From Terriglobia bacterium (GTDB taxonomy: Bacteria > Acidobacteriota > Vicinamibacteria > Vicinamibacterales > CAVVIG01): a stretch of 64,000 nt of DNA. Location of the stretch: contig JAIQFX010000047.1 in NCBI GenBank assembly GCA_020073005.1, forward strand, positions 4,080 to 68,079, given 5' to 3'. Shown here one piece after another: positions 48,571-56,663 of the stretch (the stretch's first letter is position 1; each line of letters begins with the position of its first letter). A program made the translations under genes and the position numbers. A model generated the notes under the pieces. That model worked only from the letters and a program-made list of their open reading frames with translations. It did not search any database and was not told the origin of the DNA.

Positions 48571-49293
48571 CTACGGCGACAGTCCGGCGAGAAGCGCGGG
48601 CGCGGCGCCGGCGAAGTCCGCAACCACGCGGGCGAGCGACGCCGCCGCGGATGCGGTGTCGGCGTCCGTCAGCCGATCCCACGTCGTGTGACCGCCGCCG
48701 ATGCCGAGCCACGACAGGATCGAGATGCCTTCCTGCAGATAGCGGCGCTCGTCGGCGCGGATCGACTGCTGGTACGCGAGCTGATGCGCCGTGCCGCCCA
48801 CGTCGACGAGCGTGATCATCGTCCACGGCCCGATGGCGGTCGTGAACTTCCACTCGTGCGCGGTCGAGAAGCGCTCGCCGGCGCCGCCGAGCGCCCGTCC
48901 GACGCCGTCCTTGACGGCAGCGAGCAACGCGCCGCGATTCACCTGCGCCTGCGCGGGCGCCGTCATCACCGCTCGTCGATACGCCTCCTCGCCGGCAGAT
49001 GGATTGCGCATGGCCTGCCGGAACGCCTCGATCATCGCCGCTTCGTCCGCGCTGATCGGCTCGCCGGCGAGCTCGAGCGCGCGGCGGTGATTCCGCTTCA
49101 CGAGCGCCGCGGCCAGCCGGCGGCGCTCGCTGTCGGACAGGGAGGACAGGTACTCCACGGCGCGGATGGCGATAGCGCTGCGAATGGATCGGAGGCGCGC
49201 GAAGCCCTCGCGGACTTCGCGCCCCGAATCCTCGAGCGCCCAGCGGTAGTACCGGATCGCGAACTCGTCGCGGGCCGCGATCGGATCCGCCAT
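48571..49293 (-). CDS. Candidate cognate immunity protein of the RHS toxin (240 aa, cytoplasmic, family not recognised).
   Basis: The ATG (49293-49291) shares its A with the RHS TGA (minus strand reads TGATG). MADPIAARDEFAIRYYRWALEDSG... has normal composition. The longer track ORF upstream is a shadow frame of the RHS gene. Confidence 0.7.
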   Translation of the reverse strand: MADPIAARDEFAIRYYRWALEDSGREVREGFARLRSIRSAIAIRAVEYLSSLSDSERRRLAAALVKRNHRRALELAGEPISADEAAMIEAFRQAMRNPSAGEEAYRRAVMTAPAQAQVNRGALLAAVKDGVGRALGGAGERFSTAHEWKFTTAIGPWTMITLVDVGGTAHQLAYQQSIRADERRYLQEGISILSWLGIGGGHTTWDRLTDADTASAAASLARVVADFAGAAPALLAGLSP

Positions 49294-55200: not shown

Positions 55201-56663
55201 TGGTACGTCAACGGATCGCCGTCCACGTCGCTGGAGGCGCTGCCGTCGAGCGTCACGGTCGTGCCGACGAACACGGTTTGATCGGGGCCGGCGTTCGCCA
55301 CCGGCGCCGAGTTCACCGTGCTGATGCTCACCGTATCCGGCGCGCTGTCGACGGTGCCGTCGTTGACCACGAGCTGCGCGACGTACGTTCCCGGCCGATC
55401 GACGACGAAGGTGGGCGAGACCGACGACGGATTCGACAGCGCAGCGGCGCTGCCGGCCGGCCGCGACGAGAACGACCAGTGGAACGTCAGCGGATCGCCG
55501 TCGGCATCGTGCGAGCGGCTGCCGTCGAGCGTCACCGTCGCGCCGACGACCGTGGTCTGATCCGGCCCGGCATCGGCGACCGGCGCCGAATTCAGCGTGC
55601 TGACGTTGACGGAGTCCGGCGCGCTGTCGACCGTGCCGTCGTTCACGATCAGCTGCACGACGTAGAGGCCCACGCGATCGACGACGAAGCTCGGGGAGAC
55701 GGCCGTCGGATCCGACAGCACCGCGACGCTGCCGGCCGGCCGCGACGTGAACGACCAGTGGAACGTCAGCGGATCGCCGTCGACGTCGCTCGAATGGTGG
55801 CCGTCGAGCGTGACCGTCGCGCCGACTGATGTGGTTTGATCCGGCCCCGCGTCGGCGACCGGCGGCGAATTCTGCGTCGTCACGCTCACGCGATCGGGCG
55901 CGCTCGTCAGCGATCCGTCGCTCACGACCAGCTCGAACTCGTACGTGCCCGGTTTGTCCACGACGAACGTCGGCCGCACCGCGTGCGGGTCGGAGAGCGC
56001 CGCCAGACTGCCCGCGGGCGTGCCGACGATGCTCCACTGGTACGCGAGCGCGTCGCCGTCCGGATCGCTCGAGCGGCTGCCGTCGAGCGTGACCGTCTGC
56101 CCCACGCGCGCGGTTTGATCGGGGCCGGCGTTTGCCGTCGGCGGGTGGTTGACCGCGACGCCGCCGAGGATCTGCAGCGTGATGCCGCTGCCCGGCTGGC
56201 TGCGCAGCTCGACGCTCAGCGTGTTGCCCGCGGCGAGCCTCACCGTCTTCTCGATGACGCCGGCCTGCTGGCTGAATTCCTGCGGCGCCACGGTCACGAC
56301 GCCGTTGAGCGTGATGACCGCGCTCGACACGCGCGCGTACTGGCCCGCCGCGCCGCCGTTGTCGATGCGCAGCGTGAACGTTCCGGCGCTCGCCATGAAC
56401 GTGTCGGTGACCGTCACGGGCGCGCCGGTCTTGCGCACGTAGTCTTTCCCGAACACGGCCGCCGCGGCCGGAGGCGGCACGGCCATGTAGTCCAGATGTC
56501 GCGACGCGGCGACGTCGGCGGGAGGCGTGTGCGCGTCAGCGCGCGTGAGCTCGCCGAACAGCGACAGCTGCATCAGCAGGCTCAGCACGAGAAGCCGTGC
56601 GAGGTGACGACCCGTGGCGGTCTTGACGAACCACGGAATATGGCGCGTGCGGGAATGACTCAC
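49293..56663 (-). CDS. RHS/YD-repeat polymorphic toxin, 2456 aa: signal peptide, beta-sandwich, 6 PKD-like repeats, PASTA, 2 Big_2, YD-repeat shell, RHS core, 159-aa variable C-terminal domain.
   Basis: Dozens of YD repeats are present, e.g. 'YTYDANGDLSSFVDALGNTTRYLYN'. The core end is 'GLYYLRARYYQPTTGRFTAQDP...YLYAGCDPVNKSDPSGR'. The N-terminus is MSHSRTRHIPWFVKTATGRHLARLLVLSLLMQLSLFG. PKD-like repeats carry 'PVADAGPDQT..VG..VTLDGS.S.D.DGD.LT..W'. Confidence 0.95.
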   Translation of the reverse strand: MSHSRTRHIPWFVKTATGRHLARLLVLSLLMQLSLFGELTRADAHTPPADVAASRHLDYMAVPPPAAAAVFGKDYVRKTGAPVTVTDTFMASAGTFTLRIDNGGAAGQYARVSSAVITLNGVVTVAPQEFSQQAGVIEKTVRLAAGNTLSVELRSQPGSGITLQILGGVAVNHPPTANAGPDQTARVGQTVTLDGSRSSDPDGDALAYQWSIVGTPAGSLAALSDPHAVRPTFVVDKPGTYEFELVVSDGSLTSAPDRVSVTTQNSPPVADAGPDQTTSVGATVTLDGHHSSDVDGDPLTFHWSFTSRPAGSVAVLSDPTAVSPSFVVDRVGLYVVQLIVNDGTVDSAPDSVNVSTLNSAPVADAGPDQTTVVGATVTLDGSRSHDADGDPLTFHWSFSSRPAGSAAALSNPSSVSPTFVVDRPGTYVAQLVVNDGTVDSAPDTVSISTVNSAPVANAGPDQTVFVGTTVTLDGSASSDVDGDPLTYHWALTSRPAGSAAALSNPSAVMPTFQVDVPGAYVAQLIVNDGALDSAPDSVTVSTMNSPPVADAGPDQTVLVGAMVTLDGTRSHDADGDALTFHWALTSRPAGSAATLSNPSSASPTFVVDRPGAYVAQLIVNDGTVDSAPDTVTISTTNSKPVANAGPDRTVSVGDLVTLDGSGSSDADFDPLTFRWSITAAPAGSTAALSDPAAVQPTFTPDIAGTYVFQLIVNDGLVDSDPDTVAVTANAVVHNVIVPDVTGTTQADAQAALIAAQLVLGVVTTENNNTVPAGEVIRQSPAAGSSVPTGSAVDIVISLGPGVPVLTSISVTPANQTIPRGATLQFAATGIFSDSHTEDLTPEAIWESTNAPVASITASGLATGLDAGPTIIRATARGITGSTTLTIAPQALASIVVTPANPIAVAGDSVTFKATGVFSDGTSQDLAGAVTWASSDGTVATINAAGVAVTAGPGPTSVSATKDGIVGSTTLTVQARVNDGAPPIVAITAPVSGAMVTQLVSVTGSVSDANLSRYILDYAPAGSSTFTTFATGTNTVANGVLGSFDPTLLLNDQYTIRLTAIDRGNLTSSTTISVQVARDEKIGTFTLKFTDVNVPVAGLPIQVTRTYDSRNKRQGDFGIGWSLDVQTLRVNANRVQGTAWQQTVSGGFFPNYCLQGTDQHKVTVTLPDGKIGEFDLVPQPQCQLLTPIDFGTISYSARPGTLGTLVPLDATDTFFDGGVGPGDLLDTNTFDPIDPQVFQYTTIEGRVYIISKTGGVQKVTDPNGNTLTFGPNGIVHSSGASILFARDGQGRVTQITEPNGSVLHYTYDANGDLSSFVDALGNTTRYLYNLSHGLLEIRDPLGRRPVRNEYDDSGRLIAHVDAEGHRIEYTHDLNTRQDVVEDRNGFVTVYQYDTQGNVVSITDPLGATTSYTYDARQNRLSMTDPLGHTTTHTYNASNNKTSETDALGHTTSYTYNASGRLLTTVDANGHVTTNTYDARGNLLTTTDPAGGVTSHTYDASGNELSMTDPVGGVTHYVYDAFGRQISRTDPAGLTTTDAYDANGNKTSETDPRGGVTLFAYDADNRLISITDPAGGVTSKQYDAAGQVIAEIDPLGSTTSHTYDSAGRLIQTTLPDTTTIQYTYDAEGNRLTTTDQQGRVTRLAYDARKKVTQTTFPDGATMAYVYDAASRRVAITDGLGNTTTKTYDAAGRETAAVDPAGHTTASAYDAVGNLISRTDPNGRTTLYVYDADNRAVRTTLPGGESSNSTYDAAGRKTTEADAGGRVTSYVYDGDGRLVKVTDALGGVTLFAYDGGGNRTRVTDANGHQSTFTFDPAGRMTSRTLPNGATDQYTYDAGGRLTRHTDALGRNTQYTRDVRGQLTKKTYADSSIVGFTYTPAGRRASATDARGTTMYAYDARDRITSLIYPDGQPITYSYDANGDELGITSLAGTIAYAYDTAGRLTTVTDPAGRDTSYTYDASGSRTSVLLPSGATTTYNYDGDSRLTALSHAGPIGNVLAAYAYSLGPAGNRTSVAEVPGGPRQYTYDALYRLTNEQANDLSSNPLFTNAFVYDAVGNRVTKTSTIGAGAPSTTNYTYDIADRLTSEDGVSDTWDANGNLLTRTDSGNTTQYEYDFENRLIRMTAPGGAVTEYSYDVDGNRVEKRDAGATVRYLVDTNRSLAQVLAEYTPAGTLLTSYVYANDLISMTRGGQTLFYHADGGGSTRLLTTLAGAVSDTYDYDAFGNLLSHTGPTDTPFLFNGQQYDATLGLYYLRARYYQPTTGRFTAQDPSDGNPLTPITLHKYLYAGCDPVNKSDPSGRFFCVSTPAWGRYIHDEIGRDFLAGGGDRLSNSTINTILGVPVPGGGLRPDLTDRGTQEVYEIKPVLGASLGAVQLAGYLTVLNTFDPQGRSWMGGFSYLPPVHIAIEPGVEALVFPPAGGLILYCAIDWRLLFLMVAAALTISLLETFVVPSPALAFAF
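54477..56150 (-). repeat. Six tandem ~279-bp coding repeats (93-aa PKD-like modules) inside the RHS gene.
   Basis: Residues ~172-729 form 6 consecutive 93-aa units. Units 3 and 5 are about 85% identical at the protein level by eye. Confidence 0.9.

Follow-up and report, generated by a model that had tools for sequence, protein, structure and literature searches.

How a giant Rhs toxin that appears built for Sec export, with no dedicated secretion machinery beside it, could reach a target from a diderm bacterium is the question raised by a stretch of Terriglobia bacterium DNA (64,000 nucleotides of contig JAIQFX010000047.1, here called the window). The gene in question is an open reading frame (ORF) of 2456 codons at 49293..56663 on the minus strand, followed directly by an ORF for a 240-amino-acid (aa) protein. 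We find that the locus is a genuine and intact Rhs/YD-repeat polymorphic toxin. Toxin and downstream gene probably form a two-gene toxin-immunity module that is accessory to the genome, the toxin being one of the large Rhs proteins that bear a signal peptide and work without a type VI secretion system (T6SS).

The domains of the toxin were called with Pfam and NCBIfam profiles, the NCBIfam core being held against its curated cut-off. Both collections recognize the YD shell, as 27 stretches of RHS_repeat (PF05593, E 2.9e-157) in Pfam and 18 stretches of TIGR01643 in NCBIfam. After the shell comes a core that carries the motif RxRYYxPxxGRFxxxDP ... DPxG and ends in ...DPVNKSDPSGR; going by this motif, the core is a putative aspartyl autoprotease with a predicted cleavage site between DPSG and R. 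The residues that follow number 160 after DPSG and 159 after DPSGR. The latter is the tip length given in the preliminary description of this DNA, whose account of the YD shell, the DPSGR core end and the short tip is correct in all its descriptive statements. A sequence-profile search of the PDB with the tip alignment as query aligned the toxin core with those of SGS1, TccC3, Tse5 and further solved Rhs proteins, and its matches fell in Rhs-core columns only. Ahead of the shell stands an immunoglobulin (Ig)-like segment with DUF6531, which we assume to be its entry or plug, and further upstream an array in which six PKD domains recur at exact 93-aa intervals (AGPD at aa 179, 272, 365, 458, 551 and 644). 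These adhesin-type decorations (six PKD, one PASTA and two Big_2 domains) had been recognized before, together with the lack of T6SS-type adaptors: the Pfam and NCBIfam scans find no PAAR, VgrG-binding, MIX, FIX or DUF4150 domain in the toxin protein.

The toxin ORF opens with a GTG codon 5 codons past an upstream in-frame stop, with GGAGG 7 nt upstream, and its GC content at third codon positions (GC3) is 0.91. The leader was assigned heuristically, by reading n-, h- and c-regions in the sequence and by reference to the canonical AxA leaders of relatives. The n-region occupies residues 1-23 with a net charge of +5; the hydrophobic stretch LLVLSLLMQLSLF comes next, and after it ...RADA before H. 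We read this signal-peptide-like N-terminus as a predicted Sec-type leader, as had already been proposed. A Tat signal was rejected because the twin arginine is absent, and a lipoprotein leader because the leader is without cysteine (no lipobox). Scans for promoters and terminators gave nothing above shuffled expectation. In a second assembly (L001, a contig from ENA), gene coordinates are shifted by 1 nt upstream of the toxin; an indel of one base in the intergenic stretch (window 56664-56793) seems to separate the assemblies.

The preliminary description saw the tip as variable, which holds, and passed over its likeness to the PD-(D/E)xK family Tox-REase-9 as well as the variable island in which the module sits. 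The sole Pfam match of the tip is Tox-REase-9 (PF15650; E 0.059-0.06, 14 bits), and it spans the catalytic part, LRPDL...EVYEIKP. Tox-REase-9 is defined by the motifs GxxxH, E, D, ELKP (E[LI]KP) and YxxE and was placed on RHS proteins of the class exported by the type II secretion system (T2SS) or Sec (Zhang et al., 2012; PMC3482391). The tip carries GRYIH, HDE, RPDL and EIKP and agrees with part of this definition, sharing the family's PD-(D/E)xK signature GxxxH ... D ... E[LI]KP; it departs from the family in scoring below the cut-off, in lacking YxxE, and in two additions, a beta-rich part (PP.GG.I.Y) and a C-terminal helix that is hydrophobic.

Because of a word-indexed homologue search that returned 6 relatives, the tip family had looked very rare. 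This was overturned when a profile built from these six was run exhaustively against 1.84 billion representatives and recovered 440 at E <= 1e-3 and 240 at E <= 1e-10. When 138 of these tip representatives are aligned, invariance reaches 90% or more at PDL, EIK and several other positions. Individual Pfam scans of these 138 proteins found RHS repeats in 25 and a match to PF15650 at E <= 0.01 in 19 (best 3e-08); no other toxin family, membrane toxins included, and no PAAR, VgrG, LXG or two-partner secretion (TPS) domain was found among them. Several giant carriers of the tip have signal peptides. The AlphaFold2 (AF2) model of the tip, with a predicted local distance difference test score (pLDDT) of 63, has elements in the order alpha-beta-beta-alpha-beta, then extra strands and the hydrophobic C-terminal helix, an order compatible with the restriction endonuclease (REase) core (alpha-beta-beta-beta-alpha-beta). 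From motifs and family links, we place the tip in a divergent and as yet uncurated branch of relatives of Tox-REase-9, with a predicted nuclease activity.

The helix also speaks for a different view of the tip, as a membrane-active or membrane-anchored effector whose PD...ExK likeness is incidental. It is conserved family-wide and has a strongly hydrophobic character (mean Kyte-Doolittle value 2.28 over 19 aa), and the weak tip model and sub-threshold Pfam score point the same way. Against this stand the invariance of PDL and EIK across the 138 representatives, the 19 transitive matches to Tox-REase-9 with none to membrane-toxin families, and an immunity protein that is soluble and cytoplasmic; we consider a membrane effector very unlikely.

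The toxin stop TGA (49295-49293) and the ATG (49293-49291) of the 240-aa ORF have the A at 49293 in common. The preliminary description had taken this TGATG overlap for a toxin-immunity arrangement; the overlap is there, and the linkage is kept at all tip loci examined, so that the reading stands with neutralization as its predicted part. A homologue of the 240-aa protein lies directly after the tip in L080, L081 and L082, which are all the tip homologues with downstream DNA (hmmsearch E 1.6e-25 to 8.5e-51). In L080 (721-2045), the RHS gene is broken shortly ahead of the core and another residue stands in for the lysine of EIK (EIAS), while the immunity gene is kept; this is probably an inactivated copy. 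Three other loci (L073, L074 and L078) have a truncated tip remnant and then a distant homologue of the 240-aa protein. The remnant is the C-terminal half only; in L074, remnant and homologue lie at 3694-4888 with a 319-aa ORF upstream (2734-3693), and the arrangement, seen likewise in the other two, is a stranded orphan module. Two more distant RHS tip carriers are followed by Pfam-less genes for 244 and 254 aa, which are candidate homologues of the 240-aa gene. A Thermoanaerobaculia genome (L011) matches query residues 977-2446; its tip is only distantly related (tblastn E 0.004; hmmsearch E 4.6e-05), with no immunity homologue downstream.

Orphan copies of the immunity gene (~50-55% identical), with no tip upstream, occur in several contexts at at least 13 metagenomic loci among L053-L072 and L075-L077. 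Seven of them (L065-L069, L072 and L075) are split by frameshifts, which suggests decay. A search for a shared context around the orphan genes found only small syntenic groups. Orphan and often frameshifted copies are typical of immunity genes. The protein itself has neither leader nor transmembrane segment. Its AF2 model (pLDDT 93) is globular, a helical bundle with a beta-sheet, and a Foldseek comparison with the PDB gave no neighbour (best E 0.6). Imm54 is the reported partner of Tox-REase-9, whereas the partner here represents an uncurated family, with no match to any Pfam or NCBIfam profile, Imm54 included. Judged by its conserved linkage, the 240-aa protein behaves as a cognate immunity candidate that would neutralize the tip.

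The orphan genes bear on the target as well. The toxin might be aimed at a eukaryote (a protist, fungus or invertebrate), as Tc and RhsT toxins are, with the downstream gene only shielding the producer during synthesis. Tc YD shells do deliver into eukaryotic cells, Pseudomonas aeruginosa RhsT is a virulence factor (PMC10433427), and PKD/Ig arrays are common in adhesins. However, immunity genes without a tip are found widely among related soil genomes of high GC content, which is a signature of inter-bacterial conflict, and the TcA and TcB (SpvB/Mid) domains and genes are absent; we give a eukaryotic target very little weight. The likeness to Tc toxins is confined to the cocoon: in the TcB-TcC pair (TcdB2-TccC3, PDB 6h6e), an unfolded toxin lies inside a closed YD shell whose core is autoproteolytic, whereas the window toxin has no TcB SpvB/Mid region, beta-propeller gate or TcA gene, and does have an immunity gene. 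A Tc-toxin BC component was accordingly rejected, there being no TcB domains and no TcA gene.

Can relatives of the whole protein tell how it is delivered? A genome scan returned 47 loci, with 33-46% identity to the query among the closer relatives. Their sources are Beta-, Gamma- and Deltaproteobacteria, Binatia, Polyangiaceae, Acidobacteriota, Planctomycetota, Verrucomicrobiota, Fibrobacteres, FCPU426 and others. Most complete relatives have a canonical AxA leader, and the tips of ~25 relatives are mutually unrelated; leaders and unrelated tips are the defining marks of a polymorphic toxin family. The tips of six relatives (L006, L007, L019, L025, L031 and L033) consist mostly of glycine-rich and of hydrophobic segments, unlike the window tip, and are possibly membrane-active toxins; one of the six, L019, comes from the cultured Lentisalinibacter orientalis YNA5901. 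The first ~130 residues after the leader (aa 45-171) have no counterpart among 33 relatives. The Ig-like segment with DUF6531 precedes the shell in 29 of the 33. In 13 of the 33 (L006, L007, L009, L010, L014, L015, L017, L019, L020, L025, L026, L034 and L035), a PASTA-Big_2 module lies upstream of it.

PASTA domains are usually associated with peptidoglycan sensing in monoderms. Here PASTA is conserved ahead of RHS shells in diderms of several phyla (window 53259-54461 and relatives). It is conceivable, if quite unlikely, that the PASTA-Big_2-Big_2-Ig-DUF6531 module is a self-contained device, in which the Sec-exported cocoon would dock on peptidoglycan or the envelope via PASTA and the tip would cross the target inner membrane by its own C-terminal helix. 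If true, this would be Rhs delivery in diderms that needs no T6SS, type V secretion system (T5SS) or TcA-like injector.

The neighbourhood offers no delivery partner. Our gene map joined the window to 7 kb beyond it, taken from overlapping public contigs, with the remaining ORFs scanned in Pfam (~71 kb in total). Within these ~71 kb we found no T6SS genes (vgrG, hcp, Eag-chaperone or core), and none of the type VII secretion system (T7SS), TPS, contact-dependent inhibition (CDI) or Tc systems, which, Tc aside, bears out what had been reported for the window. The sole secretion-related gene is a lone PilT-like T2SSE ATPase (20379-21530, minus strand) standing apart from any other pilus or T2SS genes. 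The other genes are metabolic or housekeeping in kind (PQQ dehydrogenase, DeaD, the elongation factor EF-P, major facilitator superfamily transporters, an aminotransferase, a patatin-like protein and others). The family shows no linked partner either: among 129 neighbours within 5 kb on each side of 22 related RHS loci, Pfam scans found no recurrent secretion component, and no Pfam family occurs in the neighbourhoods of more than 4 of the 22.

These results can be set against the reading that a T6SS or other contractile injection system, encoded elsewhere in the genome, carries the toxin as cargo and that the hydrophobic N-terminus of the toxin is not a cleaved leader. Most characterized Gram-negative Rhs toxins do depend on a T6SS (PMC4436062), and the genome portion inspected is only ~71 kb. 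But the toxin has no PAAR, VgrG-binding, MIX or FIX domain, its leader has an AxA site and relatives of many phyla have canonical leaders, no T6SS family recurs beside the 22 relatives, and a 1100-aa Ig-like array is not known as a T6SS loading module. We regard T6SS delivery as highly improbable. T6SS Rhs effectors (P. aeruginosa Tse5, PDB 8cp6; also 7q97 and 8h8a) share with the window toxin the YD shell, the DPxG core, an encapsulated tip and an immunity gene, although the core alignment is weak; they have PAAR/VgrG adaptors, are linked to vgrG or chaperone genes and lack a signal peptide, and the window locus is the opposite on each of these points.

A Sec-type toxin without partner genes has its place among known systems. 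Zhang et al. (2012; PMC3482391, Table 1) list a 'T2SS/Sec-dependent' class of polymorphic toxins with a signal peptide, RHS repeats and no signature neighbourhood genes. Kaimer, Weltzer and Wall (2023; PMC10433427) divide Rhs proteins into two groups, large (>1500 aa), signal-peptide-bearing and probably surface-displayed proteins and smaller, T6SS-delivered ones. In its signal peptide (heuristically called), its size (2456 versus >1500 aa) and its lack of signature neighbours, the window toxin belongs with the large Sec-type class, and it fits neither the T6SS-Rhs group, in any feature looked at (adaptor, linked genes, absence of a leader), nor the Tc toxins. The overall interpretation in the preliminary description, a Sec-type RHS toxin-immunity pair without linked partner, is supported, and the novelty it implied is not: the category has been in print since 2012 (PMC3482391), and a diderm precedent exists in Rhs4 and Rhs5 of Myxococcus xanthus (PMC10433427). 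The delivery question in diderms is a known open question and is not new to this locus.

Rhs4 and Rhs5 act in kin discrimination independently of T6SS (PMC10433427). Like the window toxin, they are very large signal-sequence Rhs proteins of a diderm host, encoded in variable or mobile DNA and paired with immunity. They differ in being ~4000 aa long and prophage-borne, and in phylum, N-terminal array, tip and immunity; the comparison is one of descriptions. Their T6SS-independence comes from genetics, whereas that of the window toxin is deduced from architecture and context. Bacillus subtilis WapA/WapI (PMC4436062) also combines a canonical leader, a YD shell, a polymorphic nuclease tip and an adjacent immunity gene; WapA, however, is attached to the wall of a monoderm with no outer membrane to cross, has a tRNase tip and carries other N-terminal domains.

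Taken together, we propose the following course of events, for which Rhs4/Rhs5 (PMC10433427) and WapA (PMC4436062) serve as precedents. Sec would export the 2456-aa precursor across the inner membrane, as its leader suggests, and an unlinked general route, for example a T2SS or another pathway, would bring it to the cell surface or the medium. There, the N-terminal array (the aa 45-171 domain, six PKD, PASTA, two Big_2 and the Ig-like segment) may act as a stalk, bind the target, or both. The assumed DUF6531 plug, the YD repeats and the Rhs core would form a closed shell around the 160-aa tip, and the core would cut between DPSG and R. The Tox-REase-9-like PD-(D/E)xK tip, for which motifs and family links were found, would then act as a nuclease in the target cytoplasm, and the translationally coupled, cytoplasmic 240-aa protein would serve as cognate immunity in the producer.

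The second of these steps is where another route competes. Export might end in the periplasm, followed by release through outer-membrane vesicles or lysis, which would make this a diffusible, bacteriocin-like toxin instead of a contact-dependent surface toxin. No linked outer-membrane translocator was found here or in relatives, PASTA could bind peptidoglycan, a periplasmic component, and Zhang et al. (PMC3482391) allow that REase toxins are diffusible or contact-dependent. There is no adjacent lysis gene, though, and both WapA (PMC4436062) and M. xanthus Rhs4/Rhs5 (PMC10433427) are described as cell-surface, contact-dependent toxins; release from the periplasm is in our view unlikely.

Several points weigh against the Sec-exported, T6SS-independent nuclease module that we prefer. 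Its support is computational throughout. No linked route across the outer membrane of the producer was found, and genome coverage of ~71 kb leaves room for a distant T6SS. The n-region is unusually long (23 aa) for a leader that is itself a heuristic call. As to the tip, its 14 bits lie under the PF15650 gathering cut-off of 27.3, the YxxE of REase-9 is replaced by YLxxLN (YLTVLN), Foldseek found no PDB neighbour for the mediocre model (pLDDT 63; best E 1.9), and the conserved hydrophobic C-terminal helix is not accounted for by a soluble nuclease.

That the host is diderm, as the preliminary description supposed, rests on the genes beside the module. EF-P and the permease that adjoins the immunity gene share 90%-identity clusters with proteins from metagenome-assembled genomes (MAGs) of Acidobacteriota (at least 90% identical), and because of this clustering the host, judged from its proteins, is a diderm acidobacterium. 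The syntenic contig L083 of MAG GCA_016195265.1, with flanking genes 82-97% identical at the protein level, delimits an island between a nucleoside hydrolase and the permease. In L083, the corresponding slot (7884-9979, 2.1 kb) holds a gene for an AAA_15/AAA_21/DUF3696 ATPase and a 169-aa gene, unrelated to the Rhs module and possibly a defence-type pair. Because the same slot in a close relative holds a different gene pair, the toxin-immunity module is strain-variable accessory DNA of a soil acidobacterium. Upstream of the toxin, two short overlapping ORFs (82 and 107-128 aa; 56794-57425, minus strand) encode pieces of an FG-GAP/VCBS-repeat protein and not accessory factors; they look like a decayed gene at the island edge.

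Beyond the module, the permease starts 27 nt past the immunity stop on the same strand (48543-48571) with no terminator-like site between, and homology to the related MAG stops ~20 nt upstream of the permease start. Given this gap, shared strand and limit of homology, the permease may be transcribed by read-through from the toxin operon. A 1065-aa patatin/DUF3376 gene and a 408-aa hypothetical gene (43093-47544, plus strand) stand where the related MAG has a 348-aa NHL/SGL beta-propeller gene, and a PG_binding gene with a 163-aa gene (40353-41990) is absent from it; these are further variable spots within 10 kb.

Features of the toxin-immunity locus, with positions in the window and the evidence for each
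Feature	Coordinates	Strand	Evidence
GTG start and predicted Sec signal peptide, aa 1-44	56532..56663	minus	n-region +5, h-region LLVLSLLMQLSLF, AxA-like site ADA/H; heuristic
N-terminal domain without family match, aa 45-171	56151..56531	minus	no Pfam or NCBIfam match
Six tandem PKD (K319L-like) domains	54471..56150	minus	Pfam E 6.2e-75, 6 stretches
PASTA, aa 735-797	54273..54461	minus	Pfam E 6e-17
Two Big_2 Ig-like domains, aa 801-985	53709..54263	minus	Pfam and comparison with relatives
Ig-like segment and DUF6531, aa 986-1135	53259..53708	minus	DUF6531 at aa 1082-1125, E 5.8e-08
YD/RHS repeat shell, aa 1136-2216	50016..53258	minus	PF05593 and TIGR01643
Rhs-associated core, aa 2217-2296	49776..50015	minus	TIGR03696, 72 bits (cut-off 32.5); RARYYQPTTGRFTAQDP...DPVNKSDPSG
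Toxin tip, aa 2297-2456	49296..49775	minus	PD-(D/E)xK, Tox-REase-9-like; GRYIH, RPDL, EVYEIKP and hydrophobic C-terminal helix
Cytoplasmic immunity candidate, 240 aa	48571..49293	minus	ATG overlaps toxin TGA; conserved linkage; AF2 pLDDT 93
Variable island between nucleoside hydrolase and permease (8.9 kb; FG-GAP fragments, toxin, immunity gene)	48564..57491		MAG synteny

For the biology of Rhs toxins, the locus leaves the general picture of their function unchanged, and the outer-membrane crossing is an already known question that this locus shares with the rest of its class. What it adds is an intact acidobacterial member of a class that has been little studied, the large, Sec-exported and T6SS-independent Rhs proteins. 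The relatives show that such toxins occur widely among environmental diderm phyla and that the Ig-DUF6531 entry module is common in the class, often after PASTA and Big_2. Two items are defined by the analysis, a large uncurated branch of tips related to Tox-REase-9 and an unannotated family of 240-aa candidate immunity proteins with a confident model and no solved structural relative.

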